NCBI GenBank assembly: GCA_017410375.1
Contig: JAFQQW010000058.1
Coordinates: 9,192-73,191 of the forward strand
Direction: 5' to 3'
From: Clostridia bacterium
Lineage (GTDB): Bacteria > Bacillota > Clostridia > RGIG6154
DNA: 64,000 bases
Shown: one piece after another, positions 3,935 through 64,000 of the stretch
Layout of the letters: each line of letters begins with the position of its first letter
Position numbering within the stretch: the first letter of the stretch is position 1
Notes under the pieces: generated by a model
Database searches by the model: none
What the model was told of the DNA's origin: nothing
The model's input: the letters and a program-made list of their open reading frames with translations, nothing else
Translations under genes and position numbers: made by a program

Positions 3935-3992
3935 AGCTACTCGCTTCCACCTCATCAGTCTCGCTTTGCTCGACAGCTTCTCCTCAAGGGGA
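3935..3992. repeat. degenerate copy of twin-palindrome repeat family B (CTTCTCCTCAAGGGGAAG)
   Basis: Same cacctcatc-[palindrome]-[CTTCCCCTCAAGGGGAAG] order as the copies at 5352, 5697 and 28855. Confidence 0.5.
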
Positions 3993-4194
3993 AGCCTTTT
4001 TTGTCATTCTGAACGAGCAACGCGAAGTGAAGAATCTCCCGTGCAGATGATTTTATACCAAAACAACCTTCGTTCGTTTCTCAGTTGCACTACGCAACAC
4101 GATCTCAAAAAAATAAGTTTCCTAGCGTACCCTTCTACCCTCTCTACAAGTTTCCTCAGTACTTTTGCTTGTTGCGTTACGCAACGAACACTTC

Positions 4195-4340
4195 AAAAAA
4201 TAAGCAAGCGGAGCTTGCGTATCGCAAAAAGTATTTCGCAGAAAACTTTTTGCGGAAACGGAGTACCAGACCGAAAAACGAAGTTGTGTTTTTCAAAACG
4301 CAACGAGTAAAAAGGTCTCGGTACGACGTGCTTAAGGTTG
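4195..4340 (+). repeat. repeat family A copy: hairpin GCAAAAAGT-ATTTCGCAGAAA-ACTTTTTGC plus a conserved 3' tail
   Basis: Homologous to 5120-5240, 5450-5560 and 16265-16395. Confidence 0.6.
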
Positions 4341-4392
4341 CTTTCGCAACCGATGCCATTATTATACCACAAAATCCCTAATTTGTCAATAG

Positions 4393-4430
4393 TTTTTGGC
4401 AAAAAAGTTGCGTTATGCAACTTTTTCTTG
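4393..4430 (+). terminator. hairpin AAAAAGTTGCGTTATGCAACTTTTT followed by a T-run
   Basis: 10-bp stem, loop GTTAT, then CTTGTTTTTT. Confidence 0.45.
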
Positions 4431-4486
4431 TTTTTTACACACTTTTTGCCTTTCGCAAAACACTCGCTTGCTTCACAATCCCTTTT

Positions 4487-4735
4487 TTAATAGAGTTTAA
4501 TTTCATATTTTTGAATCAACCGCAAAAGTTTTTCTACTTTTTCGGTGTCGTCCAGTTTTTCACTACGCACAATTTTTTCCACCTTTTCAAAAAACATATT
4601 ATACGCCTCGTTGTATATCTGCTCAAAATCCATGTTCTGCATGGTTCTCCACACCGCATCGCTGATATACGTTTTAATCATACGGTTTGTGATACTTTTC
4701 CGAAAATCTTCTTTATTAAAATACATTTCAGACAT
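4487..4735 (-). CDS. small conserved hypothetical protein (82 aa), paralog of 18609-18857
   Basis: MSEMYFNKEDFRKS...EKLDDTEKVEKLLRLIQKYEIKLY, about 50% identical to the 18609 ORF; AAGGAGG RBS 8 nt before the ATG. Confidence 0.55.
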   Translation of the reverse strand: MSEMYFNKEDFRKSITNRMIKTYISDAVWRTMQNMDFEQIYNEAYNMFFEKVEKIVRSEKLDDTEKVEKLLRLIQKYEIKLY

Positions 4736-4944
4736 TTGTTTGTCCTCCTTAAATAAAAAAAGTGCGCAGCCCGAGAGCCACGCACCAAAAAGACGCAGTG
4801 ACTCCATTCCTACGGTTGCAACACCACATAAACATCATCCCACATAACAGAGGTATGACAAGAATAGAGTGTACGCTTTTTACAAAGATAGCGTACCCTC
4901 TGTTTATGTGGTTTATGTAATTGTTTATGTAATGTTGCATGTTC
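4736..4944 (-). promoter_or_regulatory. structured 5' leader (riboswitch- or attenuator-like) of the small gene, ending in a terminator that abuts the RBS
   Basis: Long-range helix CCACATAAACAGAGG / CCTCTGTTATGTGG; conserved core GCTATCTTTGTAAAAAGCGTAC; block CTGCGTCTTTTTGGTGCG; hairpin GTGCG...CGCAC plus T7; homologous to 18414-18608. Confidence 0.35.
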
Positions 4945-4973
4945 AGTATATCATACTTTTTTTAATTTATCAA
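4945..4973 (-). promoter_or_regulatory. sigma-A-like promoter TTGATA-17-TATACT for the leader and small gene
   Basis: -35 at 4968-4973 and -10 at 4945-4950 on the minus strand with a 17-nt spacer. Confidence 0.4.
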
Positions 4974-5119
4974 CCTTTTTTAACAGGAAATTCATTTCTC
5001 TCCCTCCGTCACCGCTCTGCGGTGCCACCTCCCTCGTCAGAGGGAGGCAAAAAAGGCTCCCTTGTGTAAAGGGCGCTGTCGAACAAAGTGAGACTTAAGG
5101 GAGAGAAAATGCGAACGGA

Positions 5120-5240
5120 GTGAGCACCAGCCAAAAAGTATTACTTGTAAACTTTTTGGCTAAAAGGAGCAACAGCCTGATAAAAAAGCATATGCCGACA
5201 AGGCGTATGTGTAAAAGGAAGGCTTGTTGCGACGAGATTC
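5120..5240 (+). repeat. repeat family A copy, including the invariant 28-mer GAGCAACAGCCTGATAAAAAAGCATATG (5167-5194)
   Basis: Hairpin GCCAAAAAGT...ACTTTTTGGC; the 28-mer is identical to the copies at 1599-1626 and 3887-3914 (both in minus orientation). Confidence 0.65.
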
Positions 5241-5351
5241 TTTAGGGGTGCTGTCCAAATCTTTGATTTGGCTAACAGTCCCCTATGCAACAGCGCTCCA
5301 AATCTTTGATTTGGTTAAGCGCCACTGTCGCTATCGCTCAGATTGACACCT

Positions 5352-5440
5352 CATCCGTCAACTTACAGTTGACACCTTCCCCTCAAGGGGAAGGCTATGG
5401 ATGGTGCTGTGTTCAGGGCTGGCTTCGCATTCAGAATGCG
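5352..5440 (+). repeat. repeat family B: GTCAACTTACAGTTGAC + CCTTCCCCTCAAGGGGAAGG twin palindromes with a conserved flank
   Basis: Near-identical copy at 5697-5790; inverted copy at 28855-28910. Confidence 0.65.
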
Positions 5441-5449
5441 CGAGCGGTT

Positions 5450-5560
5450 AAGCAAAATACTTTTTGCAGGCAAGCCGAAAAGTATTTCAAAGAAAACTTT
5501 TCGGCTAAAAGGAAGAGCAACAACGAAAAGGAGCACTTTGTCGTAAGGCAAAGTGTGATA
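5450..5560 (+). repeat. repeat family A copy (hairpin CCGAAAAGT-ATTTCAAAGAAA-ACTTTTCGG)
   Basis: Same loop consensus ATTTCNNAGAAA and AAAAGGA(A)GAGCAAC tail as the other copies. Confidence 0.55.
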
Positions 5561-5696
5561 ATACCGTTGTTTGCTCTGACGCGGGGGCGCCGCGGTCGAA
5601 ACGCAGGAGCGTAAGTTCCTGTCGTTTCGGGTTACCGCAAGAGAGCTTGGTATGGCAGAAATGCTATGTGTATGCGCTTTTTCAGGCTTCGCATTC

Positions 5697-5790
5697 AGAA
5701 TGACACCTCATCCGTCAACTTACAGTTGACACCTTCCCCTCAAGGGGAAGGCTATGGATGGTGCTGTGTTCAGAGCTGGCTTTGCCTTTA
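5697..5790 (+). repeat. repeat family B, second direct copy
   Basis: About 95% identical to 5352-5440, including the GCTTCGCATTCAGAATG flank. Confidence 0.65.
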
Positions 5791-5855
5791 GAATGACAAA
5801 AAACGAAGACCTCTTTAAAAGAGGTCTTCGAAAAGCAAAATATCAAATTTAAATA

Positions 5856-12527: not shown

Positions 12528-13319
12528 TTATTTATACATGTGCTCTAAATTGAGCCGTTTATAGCTTGCAGGGGTTTGTCCGAAGTGTTGCTTGAAAAGG
12601 CGCTGGAAATATTTTACATCCGCAAACCCCGCCTTTTCAGCGGTTTCGGTCACGTTGTAAAACCCGCTCTGCAACAGTCCCGAGGCATACTCAAGCTTTA
12701 AATTGATAATATACCGCGCAGGCGATATCCCGTAAATGCTTTTGAAAACCCGTCTGAAATACGCCTCCGAAACAGATGCCATCTCCGCAAGATACGCCAC
12801 CGAAATTTTCTCTTTACGGTAATTCTTATGCATATAGTCTATGATGCTGTCGGGAATTTTATCCGTCCCCACCGCAGAAACACTCTCCTTTTCGGTCTGC
12901 AGCCGCAAAAGGTACAAAAGCTGATACAAAAGCGCCATGCACGCCTGCTTATATCCCGTTTTTTTCTCGGTCCAGAGCTTGTACATGGATTGGGTAAGCG
13001 CCATCGCTTCTTCGCGGTTTTCGGGCGAAACGGTTTCCACCTCCGACCTTTTTTCCGAGCTGTACCGTATAAAATGAATGGCAATAATGCTCTCCCCTGC
13101 GGTTTCCTGACTGTATTTTTTTGTTTGGGGCAGATAAATAAAATCTCCGGTCTGCACCGTATACTGTCTGCCGTCGCAGGTAAAGCTTCCGCTTCCTGCG
13201 GTACGCACACTTAAGCTGTCATAATGTCTGTCATGGGCAATCCGCAAAACCGACGCAGACCGCCTGATTTTAAACACCCCGATTAAATCCACCAGAACGC
13301 TGTCATTTCCAAAAAACAT
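12528..13319 (-). CDS. AraC-family transcriptional regulator (cupin sensor + AraC HTH)
   Basis: C-terminal dual HTH (SVSEAYFRRVFK...KYFQRLFK); divergent from the hydrolase genes. Confidence 0.85.
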   Translation of the reverse strand: MFFGNDSVLVDLIGVFKIRRSASVLRIAHDRHYDSLSVRTAGSGSFTCDGRQYTVQTGDFIYLPQTKKYSQETAGESIIAIHFIRYSSEKRSEVETVSPENREEAMALTQSMYKLWTEKKTGYKQACMALLYQLLYLLRLQTEKESVSAVGTDKIPDSIIDYMHKNYRKEKISVAYLAEMASVSEAYFRRVFKSIYGISPARYIINLKLEYASGLLQSGFYNVTETAEKAGFADVKYFQRLFKQHFGQTPASYKRLNLEHMYK

Positions 13320-13460
13320 CTTTTGTTCACCTCTTTAATCAGTATATCTTGTTTTTCTTCGAAAGTCAAGTATCGTTTTGTCCACCTTTTAGTGCGATTT
13401 GTGCGTTTACAATCCACTTTAACCGTGTTACTCTATAGATAGAAAGTGAGGTTTAAAAAA

Positions 13461-14810
13461 ATGACTAAAAAAGAAATTTTAAGCAAAATGCTGATTCAGC
13501 CTAAGAAAATCGCCCTTGGCGAAGGCACAATGCAGCTTGACGCAAGCGCAACCGTTAAAACCAACTGCACCAAAGACATTTCGTATCTTTTACAGCTGGC
13601 AAGCCTTAAAAATGCTCAAGTGGTGGATGCAGACACCAAAATCTTCTTCCTTACCGCAGGCGAGGCAACTTTTACAGAACAAGCCGAATTCGATAACGAC
13701 GAAGCCTTCTATTTAAATATAGAAGAAAAGGGCTTTGCAATTGTGGCAAAAACCGAAGACGGTCTGCTTTTAGGCTTAAAGGCGATAATCCGCATGACAG
13801 AAGAATTGTCCGATTGCCTTCCCGTTATGGACATTTACGATTACCCCAACATTCCGTTCCGTGCGGTACACACCTGCATTTTCCGTCCCGATGACGGCAG
13901 TGACAAGGAAGAAAGCCATCCCGATTACATCAAAAAGATGATTAAAACCGCGGCTCTTGCAGGCTACAATCACATTTTCATTGAATTCTGGGGCATGTTC
14001 CCGTACAGCTTAGACTACGCACACTGGCCGAACGCCTATACAAAGGAAGAAATTGCAGATTTGATTGCCTTTGCCATGGATAAAATGCACATCCGTCCGC
14101 TCCCTGCACAGAATTTGACCACCCATGCAGGCTGGAGCCGAATTGTAACCCGTCAGCACACCGTTTTGGACCAGAGACCCGACATGGCAGACATGTACAT
14201 CCCGGGCGGTTGGTGCTTTGCCACCGAAAACCCCAAAACAAAAGAATTTATCAAGCTTTTGATTGACGAGCTGGTGGAAATGTTCCGCAATCCGCCTTAC
14301 TTACATTGCTGCTGTGACAAGGCATTTGGCTTTGGCTCTACAGAAGAGGACAGAACCATGAGCGCAGACATTTTGTTTGCAAAGCATATTTCGTTCTTAA
14401 ACACCTACTTGCGCGAAAAGGATGTCAGAATGGTGATGTGGGGCGATATGCTCTACTCCTCTATGGATGCTCTGTACTGGAAGTGTGACGAAAAAACCTC
14501 TGATTTCATTCCCAAGAATGTTTTGATTAACATCTGGACCCACAACGACCCGGGCAGAAAATGGCAGGATGCGGCATTCTTTGAAAACAAAGGTTTTGAG
14601 ACCGTTTATTCCCCGTTCATGGGCGAAAAGAGCATCGAGAGCATGGTTGCCCTCTGCCACGAAAGAGGAAGCCACGGTATCGTGCAGACCACCTGGCACA
14701 GACCCCAGAGTGCAACACCCTTTGTGATTCTGTCGGGTGCATTGCAGTGGTGCGGTGAAAAGCCGAGCAAAGAGCTGATTGAAACCCATAAGGAAAAGTG
14801 GTACAGATAA
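13461..14810 (+). CDS. putative glycoside hydrolase-like TIM-barrel protein (GH20-like/DUF4838-like)
   Basis: AraC-divergent position; TIM-barrel-like alternation; AAGTGAGG RBS 8 nt before the ATG at 13461; family assignment uncertain. Confidence 0.45.
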   Translation: MTKKEILSKMLIQPKKIALGEGTMQLDASATVKTNCTKDISYLLQLASLKNAQVVDADTKIFFLTAGEATFTEQAEFDNDEAFYLNIEEKGFAIVAKTEDGLLLGLKAIIRMTEELSDCLPVMDIYDYPNIPFRAVHTCIFRPDDGSDKEESHPDYIKKMIKTAALAGYNHIFIEFWGMFPYSLDYAHWPNAYTKEEIADLIAFAMDKMHIRPLPAQNLTTHAGWSRIVTRQHTVLDQRPDMADMYIPGGWCFATENPKTKEFIKLLIDELVEMFRNPPYLHCCCDKAFGFGSTEEDRTMSADILFAKHISFLNTYLREKDVRMVMWGDMLYSSMDALYWKCDEKTSDFIPKNVLINIWTHNDPGRKWQDAAFFENKGFETVYSPFMGEKSIESMVALCHERGSHGIVQTTWHRPQSATPFVILSGALQWCGEKPSKELIETHKEKWYR

Positions 14811-14825
14811 GAAAGGAAATATGTT

Positions 14826-15911
14826 ATGGTAAGCATTCCCGAAAAATTTAAAGACCATCCGATTTTTAACGAGCGGATTTGCGGTACAAATTTCGGTTTT
14901 TTAAACACGAGAGGCTACTACCGCACCGAAAATGCCAAAAAACAGCCCGAGCTGATGCAAAAAATGGGCATCAACTGGACTACACTTAACATCAACCTCT
15001 GTCAGGAAAAGGTGTTTTCCACCAAGCTGTTTATTGATTTCAAGTACACGGTTGGCGAAGACGAAATCATTGAAATGACCCGTCTTTTGCATGAAAAGAA
15101 TGTTAAGGTGCTGTTAAAGCCGTGCTTTACCTCTTTAGACGGTGCGCCCATGTGCTGTGTAGACTTCCCCACCAAGGAAGCCTGCCGTCAGATTGAGGGG
15201 GTTGTAACCGACTACTGGAAAGAATGGTTTGCTTCCTACACCGAAAGCATGCGCTATTTTGCAGACCTGGCTCAAAGGGCAGGGGTAGACAGTATGATGA
15301 TTGGTGCAGAATTAGAAGGTACTGCAGGACAGGACGAATACTGGCTGGATATCATCAAAACGGTAAGAAGTATTTATGATGGACCGATTACCTATGAATT
15401 CACCTTCGCATCCCGCAAAAAACATGCGCTTGAATGGATGAAGGAATTGGACTATTTAAGCTACAGCTACTATCCGCCTGCACAAAAACAGCTTCCCGAC
15501 ACGTACAACGCAAAGGCAGAAGAAATTAACGCACTCCCCACCCCCACAGTGGAGGAAATGGTGGAATTCTTAAAGCCCAGAAGAGACAGAATCAAGTCTA
15601 TCATAGAGCAGTTTGGCAACAAGCCCATTGTGTTTACCGAAGCAGGCGTGCGTTCGTCGCATGGGTGCAGTATGCTTCCCTATAACTTCAACTGGGAAAC
15701 CCGCTATGACGGTGAAGAACAGGCAAATTACATGGAAGCACTGTTCCGGACCTTCCATGACATCCCGGGCTGGATGGGACTGTTTTGGTGGAAATGGGAC
15801 GAAACCCAGCACCGTCCGCACTATCACACAGAGCCGGGGGTAGACAAGGGCTTTACCATTCAGGGCAAGCCTGCAGAAGCGGTCTTAAAGAAATGGTTTT
15901 TAAAGAAATAA
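14826..15911 (+). CDS. putative clan GH-A glycoside hydrolase (GH113/GH5-like)
   Basis: MIGAELEG-type catalytic Glu context and aromatic-rich TIM barrel; co-operonic with the other hydrolase-like genes. Confidence 0.45.
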   Translation: MVSIPEKFKDHPIFNERICGTNFGFLNTRGYYRTENAKKQPELMQKMGINWTTLNINLCQEKVFSTKLFIDFKYTVGEDEIIEMTRLLHEKNVKVLLKPCFTSLDGAPMCCVDFPTKEACRQIEGVVTDYWKEWFASYTESMRYFADLAQRAGVDSMMIGAELEGTAGQDEYWLDIIKTVRSIYDGPITYEFTFASRKKHALEWMKELDYLSYSYYPPAQKQLPDTYNAKAEEINALPTPTVEEMVEFLKPRRDRIKSIIEQFGNKPIVFTEAGVRSSHGCSMLPYNFNWETRYDGEEQANYMEALFRTFHDIPGWMGLFWWKWDETQHRPHYHTEPGVDKGFTIQGKPAEAVLKKWFLKK

Positions 15912-15957
15912 GTTTTGAAAATTATAAATTGCTTTTTAGTATTTGTATGGGCTTACC

Positions 15958-16208
15958 CATTGCATTATAGTATAATAATTGCGACTACAGAAAAAACACT
16001 TCGTGTTTTACATTTATGCAATTATTGTACCACGGAGTGATGAAGCAAGCCGACTACGGCTTGCACTTATGGTATAATAATTGCGACCAAAGAAAAAACA
16101 CTTCGTGTTTTACATTTATGCAATTATTGTACCACGGAGTGATGAAGCAAGCCGACTACGGCTTGCACTTATGGTATAATAATTGCGACCACGGAGTGAT
16201 GACAAAAA
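15958..16208 (+). repeat. tandem direct repeat (about 2.3 x 118 bp), each unit carrying TGGTATAAT and two hairpins
   Basis: The unit TATAATAATTGCGACC...CAAGCCGACTACGGCTTGCACTTATGG recurs at about 15965, 16075 and 16183. Confidence 0.7.
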
Positions 16209-16264
16209 GGCTCCCTCTGACGAGGGAGCTGGCAAACCGCAGGTTTGTCTGAGGGAGAGATAAA

Positions 16265-16395
16265 GCGAGCTTCGCTCGCCCCTCGTGAAAAGTATTTCGA
16301 AGAAAACTTTTCACGAAAAAGGAGCAACCGACCGAAAAACGAAGTTGGGTTTGCCAAAACACAACGAGACAAACGGTCGTGTTGCGACACAAAAA
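16265..16395 (+). repeat. repeat family A copy
   Basis: Hairpin GAAAAGT-ATTTCGAAGAAA-ACTTTTC; tail AAAAGGAGCAACCGACCGAAAAACGAAGTTG...GTTGCGAC matches 4258-4340. Confidence 0.55.
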
Positions 16396-16412
16396 TAAAG
16401 GAGAGTTTTAAG

Positions 16413-17453
16413 ATGGCAATCAAACACACAGGTATCAGCTATTACGGCATCAATTACGTAGAGCATGCCGAAGCAGATTTTAAAGAAATGCTTGAACACG
16501 GTGTGGACACCGTTATCCTGGCAATCACCGAATTTGACATGGATTTCTGGTTTCCCAACATCAATAACATTGTAAAAAAAGCACATGAATTAGGACTTCG
16601 AGTTATCGCAGACCCCTGGGGTATCGGCAAATATTTCGGCGGTGAGCAGGTAAGCTTGTTCTTACAGAACAACATTCATCACCGTCAGGTTTCGGCATAC
16701 ACAGGCGAAGTGTTAAACGCCGCTTGCTTTAATACCAATTCGTTCCGGGACTATTTCAAAGGCATTTGCTTAAAGCTTGCCAAAAACACCGAAGTGGACG
16801 GCTTTTTCTGGGACGAACCCCACTACGCATATCCTAAGGCTTACGCTTCCATCACAGGCGGTGCCGGAGATGACTGGGCTTGCAGATGTCCCGAATGTAT
16901 GAAAAAGTTTGAGGACTACTACGGCTATGAAATGCCCAAATTCATGAACGATGACGTAAAGCAGTTCAGATGGAGAGAAGCGCTTTACACCTTAACAGAT
17001 GTTTCCAAGGCTTTAAAGGAATACAATCCGAATTTGGAAATCACCTGCTGTGTACACGCAACCCTGAACTCGTATTATGTAACCGAGCTTCGGGGCTATG
17101 ACAACTGGGATATGGTGGCAAGCTGTCCGTATTTTGACGTATTCTCCACCACCATCATCAACTGGACCCTGCCCGAAAGCTTTTTCCGTGAAATCACCGA
17201 GCGCACCGTTGCCATGGCGAAAAAGTACGGCAAGCAGTCCGAGCGCTGGCTGATGGGCTACAACAACCGCCCTGCCGATTTTAGTCAGATTGACAAAGTG
17301 GTTGATATGTACGAAGAATTAGGCGTTGACCGCCTGGCAACCTGGACATACAGAGGCGGCTACGGCACATCGGTTGCCGCAAAGGATGCTTTAGAGCTTT
17401 GGGACAACATCGGCAGAAACTATAAGCGCGTTTTGAAAAAGGAGGACAAATAA
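16413..17453 (+). CDS. hypothetical TIM-barrel sugar-processing enzyme (GH42/clan-A-like)
   Basis: GAGAG RBS before the ATG at 16413; hydrolase-like beta/alpha periodicity; the ORF-track start at 16245 lies inside a repeat. Confidence 0.4.
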   Translation: MAIKHTGISYYGINYVEHAEADFKEMLEHGVDTVILAITEFDMDFWFPNINNIVKKAHELGLRVIADPWGIGKYFGGEQVSLFLQNNIHHRQVSAYTGEVLNAACFNTNSFRDYFKGICLKLAKNTEVDGFFWDEPHYAYPKAYASITGGAGDDWACRCPECMKKFEDYYGYEMPKFMNDDVKQFRWREALYTLTDVSKALKEYNPNLEITCCVHATLNSYYVTELRGYDNWDMVASCPYFDVFSTTIINWTLPESFFREITERTVAMAKKYGKQSERWLMGYNNRPADFSQIDKVVDMYEELGVDRLATWTYRGGYGTSVAAKDALELWDNIGRNYKRVLKKEDK

Positions 17454-18203
17454 ATGCAGGATTTTGGTTATTATGAATCTATACTTAAAAATTTAGAACA
17501 GGTCAATGCCACCCAGGAAGAAACTATCAAGGCGGCAGGCAAGCTGATGGCAGATGCCATTGCAGAGGACCGTTTAATTCATGTGTACGGCGGTGGCGGT
17601 CACACCACATTGCCGGTGGGTGAAATGTTTTTCCGTGCAGGTGGGCTTTCTTGCATCAACCCCGTTATGGAAACAGGCCTTTCGGTATTCAATCAGGCTT
17701 TAAAATACTTAGAATTAGAGCGCACCGTAAACTACGGCAGCTCTATCATGAAGTATTATGACTTAAAAAAAGACGATGTCTTAATTATTTTCCACAACAT
17801 CGGCATCAACCCTGCCACCATTGATGCGGCTATGGAAGCCAAAAAGCAGGGTGCAAAAATCATTGCGGTTTCATCCTCTTACTGGCAGGACGAAATGCCG
17901 GCTGACCATTTTATCCGTCATCCCAATAAGACAAACCTCTTTGATTATGCAGACGTTTGCATTGACGATTTCAATCCCGTAGGCGATGCGGTGGTTAACG
18001 TGCCGGGTCTTGATACCCCCATCGCGCCCATTTCCAACATTGTGGATTTTTATATCGCACATTTATTGGAAATCGAAACAGTACGCCAGTGCGTAGAACG
18101 TGGCATCACACCGCCCGTGTGGAACAGCGCCAACACCCCCGGCGGTGACGAAAAGAACGCAGGCTATCTTGAAAAATATAAACCCAGAATCAAAATGTTA
18201 TAA
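17454..18203 (+). CDS. SIS (sugar isomerase) domain protein
   Basis: Rossmann-like SIS fold segments (IHVYGGGGH...); translationally coupled to the upstream gene (TAAATG). Confidence 0.65.
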   Translation: MQDFGYYESILKNLEQVNATQEETIKAAGKLMADAIAEDRLIHVYGGGGHTTLPVGEMFFRAGGLSCINPVMETGLSVFNQALKYLELERTVNYGSSIMKYYDLKKDDVLIIFHNIGINPATIDAAMEAKKQGAKIIAVSSSYWQDEMPADHFIRHPNKTNLFDYADVCIDDFNPVGDAVVNVPGLDTPIAPISNIVDFYIAHLLEIETVRQCVERGITPPVWNSANTPGGDEKNAGYLEKYKPRIKML

Positions 18204-28787: not shown

Positions 28788-28814
28788 TTCCACCTCATCC
28801 GAGTTGCGTTCCGC

Positions 28815-28910
28815 AACCCACCTTCCCCTCAAGGGGAAGGCTTTTAAGTTCCATCTACCTCAAAAGGCTTCCCCTTTGAGGGGAAGCTGTCAACGAAGTT
28901 GACTGATGAG
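28815..28910. repeat. repeat family B: one CCTTCCCCTCAAGGGGAAGG hairpin plus an inverted full copy (CTTCCCCTTTGAGGGGAAG-GTCAACGAAGTTGAC-TGATGAGGTG)
   Basis: Reverse-complement arrangement of the 5352 and 5697 elements, between the GH78 stop and the DUF559 start. Confidence 0.6.
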
Positions 28911-38051: not shown

Positions 38052-38160
38052 TTTTCACCCCGTTTTAATGTATCCCTATAATTTTATGAAAATCCGAAAC
38101 AATATATTATTTATATTAATTATATAATTAGGTTACAGGAAAGATGCACCTTGTTTTTAA

Positions 38161-38340
38161 TGAATTGACAACTTCGTTGTCATGAATTGGCTAAAGCCAT
38201 GAATTGTTGCTATCGCAACATGAATTGAATTGCCTATATAATGCACGAAGTGTAATTCATGAGCCGCAAGGCTCAATTCATGAAATCACAGATTTCAATT
38301 CACGACGAAGGCAATTCATTGAGTTTGCTTTGCAAACTCA
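38161..38340 (-). promoter_or_regulatory. 5'-UTR array: four AUGAAUUG-type and four CAAUUCAU-type 8-mers interleaved with tetraloop hairpins
   Basis: Hairpins GACAAC-TTCG-GTTGTC, GGC-TAAA-GCC, GTTGC-TATC-GCAAC, GAGCC-GCAA-GGCTC, GAGTTTGC-TT-GCAAACTC, each flanked by the 8-mer; lies between the promoter and the YgjV start. Confidence 0.5.
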
Positions 38341-38368
38341 TTATATCATAAAAAATATTAACTTTCAA
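38340..38368 (-). promoter_or_regulatory. strong sigma-A promoter TTGAAA-17-TGaTATAAT (extended -10)
   Basis: -35 at 38363-38368, -10 at 38340-38345, TG at -15 on the minus strand. Confidence 0.55.
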
Positions 38369-62203: not shown

Positions 62204-63451
62204 TTATTCAAAACAGCTTCTGATGATTTCAATCACAACATCCTGCTCCTGCTCTGTCATACGGATATCGCTGGGCAAGCACAGACCACGATGGAAAATA
62301 TCCTCGCCCACTTCAGAATAGTCGCCCGATGCAATGTAGGCATTGGTACGGCATCTGCCGTCGCCCGTCGCGGTTACATAGGGATTCATGCGGAAGATGG
62401 GTTGCATATGCATGGGCTTCCAGATGGGTCTGCCCTCTGCATTGTATTTGGCAAGTGCCTCTAAAATTTCTGTGGGACAGCTTTTTCCGCTTTCGGGAAT
62501 GAAAAGTGCCTCGCTGTCACTTCTGACCTGCTTGCACATAGCATCTTCGTCAATCAAAAGGCAGGACAGCCAGAAGTTCGGTTCGCATTCTTCGGGATTA
62601 TAGGGATTCATCGAAACGGGCAAATCCTTTAATCCCTCTTTGTAGCGCATATAAATTGCCTTTTTCTTGGCAATATGTTCTTCCAAGTACGGAAGCTGAC
62701 CGCGTACAACCCCCGCAATCACGTTGGACATGCGGTAATTGTAGCCGATTTCCTCATGCTGATACCAGGGTGCATTCTCACGGCTCTGGGTAGACCATTT
62801 GCGCGCACGGTTTGCCGCTTCCAAATCGTCGGTTAAGAGCATACCGCCCGAAGAGCCGGTTATAATTTTGTTGCCGTTAAAGCTGATGGCATTATATGTA
62901 CCGAATGTACCTGTCTGCACACCCTTATAAGAAGCACCAAAGGATTCTGCCGCGTCCTCAATTAAAATTGCACCGTGCTTTTCACAGACTGCCTTGATTT
63001 CATCCATTTTGGCAGGTGTGCCATATAGGTTTACGCTCACAACCACCTTTACATCCGGATACATCTCAAAGGCTTTTTCCAACGCCACCGGGTCCATGTT
63101 CCAGGTATCCCGTTCCGAATCAATAAATATCGGGATGCCCCCCTCATACACAACCGGGTTTACGGTTGCACTGAAAGTCATGTCCGAGCAGAACACATAA
63201 TCGCCTTTTTTAATGCCTGCAAGCTTCATGCAAAGGTGCAGTGCCGCAGTTCCGGCAGACAAAGCCACTGCATACTTGCAACCGATTTTTTCTGCCGCAA
63301 GGCGTTCCACCTCATTGATATTCTTGCCAACCGTAGACATCCAGTTGGTTTCGTACGCCTCTGTCACATATTGAATCTCTTCGCCGTGCATGCATGGCGA
63401 AGCAAGCCAGATTCGATTTTCGAACGGCTTGAACGCTTTTGTATGTGCCAT
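62204..63451 (-). CDS. DegT/DnrJ/EryC1/StrS-family PLP-dependent sugar aminotransferase
   Basis: Fold-type I aminotransferase with SxNGNK(I/L) lysine region (ISFNGNKIIT); first gene of the operon, GGGGG RBS. Confidence 0.9.
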   Translation of the reverse strand: MAHTKAFKPFENRIWLASPCMHGEEIQYVTEAYETNWMSTVGKNINEVERLAAEKIGCKYAVALSAGTAALHLCMKLAGIKKGDYVFCSDMTFSATVNPVVYEGGIPIFIDSERDTWNMDPVALEKAFEMYPDVKVVVSVNLYGTPAKMDEIKAVCEKHGAILIEDAAESFGASYKGVQTGTFGTYNAISFNGNKIITGSSGGMLLTDDLEAANRARKWSTQSRENAPWYQHEEIGYNYRMSNVIAGVVRGQLPYLEEHIAKKKAIYMRYKEGLKDLPVSMNPYNPEECEPNFWLSCLLIDEDAMCKQVRSDSEALFIPESGKSCPTEILEALAKYNAEGRPIWKPMHMQPIFRMNPYVTATGDGRCRTNAYIASGDYSEVGEDIFHRGLCLPSDIRMTEQEQDVVIEIIRSCFE

Positions 63452-63552: not shown

Positions 63553-63596
63553 CGTATTTTCTATCCCTCTTTTCGGTCAAAAAGCCTCTTTTTTTG

Positions 63597-64000
63597 ACAT
63601 CTGAAGCGTTCCGCCCATTCATACAATGTAGGGCAGGGGCTTGCTCCTGCCGAAAAAGGCGAAATGATACGCAGGTACTTCCCTACAAGACGTTAATTTG
63701 ACATCTGAAGCGTTCTGCCCATTCATACAATGTAGGGCAGGGGCTTGCTCCTGCCGAAAAAGGCGGAACGAGCAAGCCCGTTCCCTACAAGATTGTAATA
63801 AAACAACTTTGTGCTTGCAAATTTTGTTAAATTGCAGCAAAATTCAATTGCAGAGAAGCAGCTGTGCGAAATGATACGTAGGTGCTTCCCTGCAAGACGT
63901 TAATTTGACATCTGAAGCGTTCTGCCCATTCATACAATGTAGGGCAGGGGCTTGCTCCTGCCGAAAAAGGCGGAACGAGCAAGCCCGTTCTCTACAAGAT
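63597..64000. repeat. tandem long-palindrome repeats of about 100 bp (three or more copies, one with an internal deletion of about 120 bp), running off the window edge
   Basis: Unit GACATCTGAAGCGTTCTGCCCATTCATACAATGTAGGGCAGGGGCTTGCTC...GAGCAAGCCCGTTCCCTACAAG at 63597, 63700 and 63907. Confidence 0.7.

Follow-up and report, generated by a model that had tools for sequence, protein, structure and literature searches.

A tandem array of short, structured modules ending in a -10 hexamer upstream of a sugar isomerase gene pair in Clostridia: a candidate promoter-carrying mobile element

The window, the whole 64-kb stretch of Clostridia DNA analysed here, carries a short tandem array at 15958-16202, between the flanking genes IJE10_09110 and IJE10_09115, which NCBI numbers consecutively with no gene called between them. 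The array lies within a group of genes (12528-18203) arranged as AraC / GH20-GH113 / array / 346aa-SIS. Downstream of it are a plus-strand gene for a conserved uncharacterised protein of 346 aa (16413-17453) and, directly after this, a gene for a SIS-domain sugar isomerase (17454-18203); both are presumed to be transcribed from the array. Identity of the 346-aa protein across many Clostridia amounts to 75-90%, its gene is followed by that of the SIS sugar isomerase in every locus examined, and genes for a PfkB kinase and a GFO/IDH/MocA protein are often found nearby. The protein has no sequence match in Pfam, NCBIfam or the PDB and represents a conserved enzyme family of unknown function.

The array is composed of two full units and remnants. 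Tandem Repeats Finder delimits a tandem repeat at 15960-16191 with 2.3 copies of period 102, 96% matches and a score of 436. An earlier note made from the letters of this DNA had recognised the strong repetition, which is borne out, but had given it a period of 118 bp with units starting at 15965, 16075 and 16183; given that the repeat finder locates two 102-nt copies (97% identical) at 15965 and 16067 and a third of 27 nt at 16169, that period and the latter two starts are wrong. In the phase used here, a unit begins directly behind one TATAAT and closes with the following one (TRTGnTATAAT). In this phase, the left edge of the array (15958-15976, plus strand, as for all array features below) consists of a remnant of a unit 3' end, reading ATTGCATTATAG where the corresponding unit sequence is CTTGCACTTATGG, and the first hexamer TATAAT (15971-15976). 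Full unit 1 (15977-16078; 102 bp) starts with AATTGC and ends in CACTTATGG-TATAAT, with its hexamer at 16073-16078, while full unit 2 (16079-16180; 102 bp, 97% identical to unit 1) ends in TGGTATAAT, with its hexamer at 16175-16180. A third-unit remnant (16181-16202) follows, in which the left end AATTGCGACC is fused to ACGGAGTGATGA, the initial 12 nt of the h2 segment. It is indeed the deletion derivative that the earlier note took it for: 45 nt have been deleted internally between ACC microrepeats, removing h1 and a', and the copy is truncated after that point.

Each full unit comprises, in order, AATTGC (the inner part of an arm termed a), a linker, a hairpin h1, a further linker, an anti--10 arm a' (GCAATTATTGTACC(A)), ACGGAGTGATGA, a hairpin h2 and ACTTATGG-TATAAT. 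Hairpin h1 (AAAACAC-TTC-GTGTTTT) is located at 15993-16009 in unit 1 and 16095-16111 in unit 2, arm a' at 16018-16032 and 16120-16134, and hairpin h2 (GCAAGCCG-ACTA-CGGCTTGC) at 16045-16064 and 16147-16166. Both hairpins had been ascribed to every unit; they are present, though confined to the two full ones. The strongest internal feature is a 15-nt inverted repeat, TGGTATAATAATTGC / GCAATTATTGTACCA (a/a'), whose arms are 93% complementary and 35 nt apart; the earlier note had overlooked it. The resulting stem, P1, encloses h1 and includes the -10 box as part of its 5' arm. In unit 1, P1 spans 15968-16032, with arm a (15968-15982) pairing with a' (16018-16032), and in unit 2 it spans 16070-16134; a third a arm (16172-16186) lacks a pairing partner.

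The only open reading frame of the array, encoding 78 aa on the plus strand (16016-16252), had been attributed to the repetition itself. It exists, and is likewise regarded here as a spurious product of the repetition, since it has no homologue among 5.8 billion proteins, a search that also served to locate other arrays and returned no match, and its Pfam match is only sub-threshold. The module is thus non-coding, with a length of 68-102 bp across the loci described below. The 346-aa gene has a leader (16203-16412, plus strand), running from the last -10 to the ATG, that is built of other repeat families, pieces of the repeat mosaic found elsewhere in the window. It contains hairpins at 16210-16229 and 16232-16250, followed by a family-A copy at 16263-16388 that is 77% identical to another at 4202-4327. 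The first hairpin, GCTCCCTC-TGAC-GAGGGAGC, and the family-A repeat after it are as previously noted. This hairpin resembles a terminator on the minus strand only, where a T-run follows it. Within 16211-16257, the segment CTCCCTC(TGAC) can pair with either GAGGGAG at 16222 or GTCTGAGGGAG at 16247-16257, forming mutually exclusive hairpins.

Promoter-like sequence recurs at the end of each unit. The motif TGGTATAATAATTGCGACC is found at 16070 and 16172, with a two-mismatch copy, TAGTATAATAATTGCGACT, at 15968, and the search for this motif returned four matches against 0.02 expected. An extended -10 element had been claimed for every unit. This holds for copies 2 and 3, which carry TATGGTATAAT, but not for copy 1, which carries TATAGTATAAT and, as TAGTATAAT, has TATAAT without TG. 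This first hexamer (15971-15976) also lacks a -35 element at 16-18 bp, leaving the array in the window without a recognisable earlier promoter on its left side. Across six loci with homologous arrays, 13 of 15 copies keep TATAAT and 14 of 15 the TRTG extension of Firmicutes, and 30-230 nt separate the last copies from a ribosome-binding site and start codon downstream, a geometry that fits transcripts starting about 7 nt behind the hexamer. In three of these loci the last copy stops right at the end of the hexamer, and leader, ribosome-binding site and ATG come next; in the other three, including the window, it runs 8-23 nt beyond TATAAT, such that the ends of the element are not uniform. These sequence features suggest that the last copy would work as an extended -10 promoter that needs no -35 element, the last TGGTATAAT in the window (16172-16180) being the likely internal promoter of the 346-aa/SIS gene pair. 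The proposal that the array could act as tandem promoters is plausible on motif content.

Comparison with related genomes suggests how the array came to lie upstream of this gene pair. At loci encoding orthologues of the 346-aa protein (84-90% identity), the array is absent and the upstream region is short, unrelated and located beside a divergent AraC gene, next to which these loci have a TTTACA-17-TATAAT promoter. The window keeps that region upstream of GH20. A closer relative (L031/L032) has the gene order AraC / 346aa-SIS-GH20-GH113, and its AraC-side promoter region is conserved with that of the window. This difference in gene order, with the AraC-side promoter conserved, places the array at a rearrangement junction where 346aa-SIS has lost its native promoter. 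In a further close relative (L033), homology downstream of GH113 stops at ...GGGCTTACC, corresponding to window position 15957. After GH113, this relative carries a different repeat family (L033 4118-4225), which resembles window 5330-5460; this intergenic spot hence accepts several repeat families. Metagenome contigs encoding proteins identical to those of the window (L001 and L002) end inside the array, and copy number is not comparable for them because of these breaks. No transposase, including any Y1 transposase, was detected near the array among the ten window proteins scanned. At 426-2808, the window encodes a phage terminase large subunit and a protein with a weak portal-protein match, suggestive of a prophage remnant.

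Homologous modules are scattered among Clostridia. A scan of 185,579 species genomes with the pattern TATAATAATTGC-N25-45-GCAATTATTGTA found two real relatives: a Clostridia metagenome-assembled genome (MAG) from water deer (L004) and MAG S36M_St_31 (L005). A strict 24-nt scan matched only two of these 185,579 genomes. A metagenome scan with a junction 22-mer added three loci (L006, L008 and L010), two of which (L006 and L010) come from one metagenome sample. Further matches from the genome scan (L003) and the metagenome scan (L007 and L009) are chance matches in which the partner arm is missing. Six loci are thus known, with one in the 64-kb window. The five loci outside the window have one to two full units followed by a last copy that is the promoter piece only, then a unique leader, a ribosome-binding site and a start codon. 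Their downstream genes are unrelated, encoding a sugar-binding protein (L004), a MatE exporter (L005), a DUF1599 protein (L006), an AraC regulator (L008) and a TetR regulator (L010). All six arrays lie 5' of genes in promoter position, five of them in divergent intergenic regions; in these five, either orientation faces a gene, and array orientation is consequently weak evidence. The host genomes range from 40 to 62% GC, yet the module itself is AT-rich.

Other searches delimit this distribution. With L005 as the basis of a covariance model, L004 reaches 91 bits, L008 69 bits and the window 61 bits (16068-16180; 61.3 bits, E ~4e-10), within an overall range of 61-139 bits. The model recovers no further copy in the window or in about 230 kb of other loci, with about 360 kb of sequence covered. 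Phage and plasmid collections contain nothing that BLAST matches to the array, and three pattern scans of viral contigs yielded either no matches or chance matches in coding sequence. No TnpA was found at any locus, within about 10 kb per locus. Across the whole window, Rfam returned nothing at gathering thresholds, the best sub-threshold hits (at most 19.5 bits) being to implausible miRNA and snoRNA families. The P0142 loci have a different gene context and are uninformative. No description of such an element was found in the searchable literature, within the limited reach of that search.

The modules fall into two subfamilies. Subfamily A, comprising the window, L004, L005 and L008, has h1, and its a and a' arms are separated by 35-37 nt. 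Subfamily B comprises L006 and L010, from genomes of about 60% GC; its a and a' arms are almost contiguous (1-3 nt apart), and it has an additional hairpin and a second anti--10 segment, TATACCAT, able to pair with the next -10 copy. A model-guided alignment of four loci has 97.6% of its cells paired, and 9 of 31 stem pairs are changed on both sides, compared with none when partners are slid by 1-3 columns, a count drawn from four sequences in an alignment fitted to the structure. Four of the 15 pairs of P1 are changed on both sides. The base n of TGnTATAAT covaries with its partner in a' (G:C, T:A and A:T), L008 has AAACA:TGTTT in place of the ATTGC:GCAAT of other loci, and h2 shows a double compensatory change between units 1 and 2 of L005. 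In L008, a' matches the upstream rather than the downstream -10 copy, indicating that the conserved stem includes the first promoter's own -10 region. Compared with shuffled sequence, a 481-nt region containing the array has a much stronger predicted fold on both strands (z between -10 and -12), with single units at about -6 to -7. On a modest reading, these modules constitute a family of conserved, covarying DNA or RNA structures that Rfam does not list and that share sequence with a promoter element. The complementarity of the arms could alternatively stem from template-switch correction in palindromes rather than from selection.

Several lines of evidence indicate that the module moves and varies in copy number. 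L006 and L010 share about 190 bp that start at the first TATAAT and end exactly at the last TATGGTATAAT, between unrelated flanks. The shared segment carries the same pair of units at both loci, u1 resembling u1 and u2 resembling u2, and both loci come from one metagenome. When the module is conceptually deleted from either locus, a normal arrangement of -35, -10, leader and ribosome-binding site results. L005 and L064 provide a filled and an empty allele of the same LeuA/MatE intergenic region, near-identical upstream through TGATATAAT. The empty allele (L064) has only a TTGTAA-17-TATAAT promoter with TG, 39 nt from the ATG, and the filled allele (L005) has about 198 extra bp, corresponding to two units, directly 3' of the native hexamer. 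The right junction of this pair is less clean than the left, in that the leader between the last -10 and the ATG has also diverged.

Further alleles are found at the remaining loci. Among close relatives, at least three alleles of the L008 locus exist, all diverging right after TATAAT(A). One has a lone promoter with an h2-like hairpin behind it, and the other two have a unit, of 68 nt where h2 is lacking and of 102 nt where it is present. In an additional allele of this locus (L041 1-45), TATGATATAAT is immediately preceded by another hairpin, GCTCCAGTTCGGGAGC; different hairpin modules are thus accepted just 5' of the last -10 copy. Two-unit and one-unit alleles exist at both the L006 and L010 loci, answering the earlier suggestion that copy number be compared among strains: it is variable at these loci, and the array is absent altogether from the orthologous loci of the window's 346-aa gene. 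The one-unit alleles are u1/u2 chimeras with differing crossover points, which fits unequal recombination. They are regarded as real because such chimeric junctions could not be assembled from the reads of a two-unit genome and because the one-unit allele of the L006 locus was found in four samples.

The ends of the module coincide with the -10 motif. Every unit is bracketed by (TG)nTATAAT (the first copy of L006 has TGT and the others TGG), whereas the empty L064 allele has a single copy. Left break points fall right after TATAAT in L005/L064, in L006/L010 and in the L008 alleles, and units end in TATAAT. Given that the exact ends fall within this direct repeat of 6-9 nt, target-site duplication and insertion 3' of the target are indistinguishable. 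The module has no clear terminal inverted repeats: its strong inverted repeat (a/a', 13-15 bp) is internal, and the left end AATTGC matches the reverse complement of the right end GCACTT at 6 of 8 positions in L005, 7 of 11 in the window and 9 of 11 in L006, as judged by eye.

Taken as a comparative pattern, these observations suggest that the array probably represents a short (68-102 bp) non-autonomous insertion module that uses the sigma-A -10 hexamer as its insertion point and is scattered among Clostridia. The best reading is that it is undescribed, a short promoter-carrying mobile module with an unusual target logic. The earlier note had offered a short tandem-duplicated mobile element as the other option to tandem promoters, and that option is backed by the homologues elsewhere, the edges at -10 hexamers, the filled and empty alleles and the variation in copy number. 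The two readings are not alternatives, as the element appears both to carry and to land in a -10 box. Under the proposed mechanism, the module would be mobilised in trans and would land at or 3' of TGnTATAAT, possibly aided by base pairing between a' and the target in single-stranded DNA. Its 3' end, with its own CACT-TRTGn-TATAAT, would then regenerate a promoter for the downstream gene. Insertion would cause little harm because a -35-independent extended -10 at the module end restores the promoter, and arrays could grow by re-insertion because the module regenerates its own target and provides direct repeats. Units would subsequently be gained and lost by unequal recombination.

Other origins of the array must be weighed against this mobile-module reading. 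The array may encode structured RNA, either as a set of small-RNA genes in which each unit supplies a promoter and an RNA of about 80 nt, or as a 5' leader that tunes mRNA stability or processing. The three helices with compensatory changes, the strong folding z-scores and the G-T wobbles of P1 on the sense strand in subfamily A are all compatible with such a role; moreover, read-through from the co-directional GH113 gene, with no terminator in between, would transcribe the whole array in the window. This is nonetheless unlikely. A transcript from the first promoter cannot form P1, given that P1 includes the -10 of that promoter and that a' of L008 matches this first copy only, and read-through from upstream has no source at five of the six arrays, which lie in divergent intergenic regions. 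On the sense strand, h2 is not followed by an intrinsic terminator in any array (including the window array and L005), no Rfam family matches and the downstream genes are unrelated. In the second units of subfamily B, the deviating pairs are A-C mismatches on the sense strand and G-T wobbles on the other. An RNA function would also leave the edges at -10 and the presence/absence alleles without explanation. More improbable still is that no mobile element exists and that fold-back (template-switch) mutagenesis recurred at each locus to produce a, a' and a, followed by unequal crossing-over. A direct-inverted-direct arrangement of -10 sequences is the expected product of two template switches, palindrome arms can be homogenised mutationally, the chimeric one-unit alleles show active unequal recombination, and the 45-nt deletion in the third copy of the window lies between ACC microrepeats at the base of the palindrome. 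Such mutagenesis does not account for the non-palindromic parts common to different loci and genomes (GTGAAGCAAAG...CTTTGCACTTATG, the 24-mer TTGCACTTATGnTAwAATAATTGC and the GAAATCC h1), the same u1-u2 pair at two unrelated loci (L006 and L010), or the conservation of an AT-rich module in genomes of 40-62% GC; these features point instead to common descent and movement.

It is very improbable that the array arose through local tandem duplication of the 346-aa gene's native promoter, selected for expression and without relatives elsewhere. Although the units are 97% identical within the array and each has an extended -10 motif, the orthologous loci use another promoter (the TTTACA-17-TATAAT site beside AraC that is kept upstream of GH20 in the window), and the homologous modules upstream of five unrelated genes contradict a purely local origin. 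There is an equally slim chance that the array is a series of operators, with a dimeric regulator on the a/a' half-sites occluding the -10 box. A 13-15-bp inverted repeat does overlap the -10 in every unit, and forms a nearly contiguous 29-bp palindrome in subfamily B. However, the comparative data contradict this: half-sites 1-3 nt apart in subfamily B and 35-37 nt apart in subfamily A are typical of a stem whose tip varies rather than of a protein site, position n, which a protein would not contact, changes together with its pairing partner, pairing but not sequence is preserved in h1 and h2, and the downstream genes have no shared function. Other candidates were compared and set aside: Fur/PerR boxes for the inverted repeat and Xer/dif arms for the conserved TTATG motif are unfit in spacing and half-sites, as judged by eye; a DNA-inversion switch is rejected because the arms are only 2-37 nt apart; and a single-strand origin or conjugative single-stranded DNA promoter is rejected on the grounds that all loci are ordinary chromosomal metabolic or regulatory genes.

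The candidate mobile module shares features with several known classes of element. The concept of putative mobile promoters has been put forward previously (Matus-Garcia et al. 2012, PMC3488235). Like these, and like the Correia (CREE) elements of Neisseria and ERIC of Yersinia, the module is short, non-coding, dispersed in intergenic regions and internally paired. In common with promoter-bearing MITEs and mobile promoters, it brings promoter parts to unrelated genes and is polymorphic between strains. The two ends of a Correia element are 26-bp inverted repeats, and its TA target is duplicated. In contrast, the strong inverted repeat of the module lies inside it and takes in the -10 box, the -10 motif itself forms the direct repeat of 6-9 nt on either side, an existing -10 hexamer is the insertion point and the units are arranged head-to-tail. 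The module also resembles Listeria LhrC1-4, tandem small-RNA genes, in that a unit of roughly 100 bp containing a promoter-like element and hairpins is repeated, but differs from them in that no intrinsic terminator was found in any unit and the conserved stem includes promoter DNA.

Parallels in target logic are provided by IS200/IS605 derivatives (palindrome-associated transposable elements, PATEs), which are moved by Y1 HUH transposases. These insert immediately 3' of a fixed short sequence, as the module may do, and share with it a similar sequence at the element 3' end, subterminal hairpins and DNA complementary to the cleavage or target site. Their transposition proceeds via a single-stranded intermediate, in which the folds observed in the module would form. 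In IS608, a tetranucleotide target is read by base pairing (PMC5934647, PMC3597680). Each hairpin of IS608 has its guide, of 4 nt, on the 5' side; in the module, the complementarity extends over 9-15 nt and lies 3' of h1. Furthermore, IS200/IS605 elements have similar hairpins at both ends, while h1 and h2 of the module differ in sequence and size; a TATAAT target is not known for the family. REP/BIME sequences and REPINs resemble the module as extragenic palindromic arrays of alternating orientation (a, a', a) that vary in copy number and would readily form hairpins as single-stranded DNA. The usual place of REPs is 3' of a gene or between genes transcribed together; they bear a GTAG-type tetranucleotide, reach hundreds of copies and have no -10 box. 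The module departs from this class in lying at promoters, 5' of genes at six of six loci, and in having one locus in 64 kb.

A bolder reading of the mobile module, possible if doubtful, is that it represents a new class of non-autonomous element that homes into -10 boxes by means of an internal guide, a' (together with TATACCAT in subfamily B), that pairs with TGnTATAAT. Guide pairing would take place with single-stranded target DNA, such as that exposed by a replication fork or an open promoter complex, and integration would follow directly 3' of the hexamer, with the element's own -35-independent promoter keeping the host gene expressed. If this is correct, the module would exemplify an insertion strategy that is harmless by design, with a logic analogous to that of self-splicing introns; promoter strength would be rewired by such insertions and arrays could act as copy-number-variable expression dials. 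If the mobile-module reading holds, -10 boxes would be the insertion targets of small parasitic DNA that rebuilds the promoter it interrupts, providing a new route for promoter turnover and strain-level expression differences in gut Clostridia. Arrays of this kind would also be a source of contig breaks, as where L001 and L002 end within one. Were integration guided by complementarity between element and target, it could be reprogrammed.

Repeats of other kinds are found elsewhere in the window. On the minus strand at 38150-38350, a promoter-like TTGAAA-17-TATAAT site is followed by at least six short hairpins separated by AATTCATG/ATGAATT; this hairpin train matches no Rfam family at gathering threshold. 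Dense mosaics of further repeat families occur at 3945-5800, 28788-28845 and 16203-16400, and include the hairpin CACCTTCCCCTCAAGGGGAAGG in four copies and a 101-nt sequence present at both 5338 and 5695. A second array between genes, which contains hairpins and repeats every 102-105 bp or so, occupies 63555-64000 and continues past the last base of the window. It is unrelated in sequence to that at 15958-16202 and lies upstream of the promoter of the gene at 62204-63451 on the minus strand.
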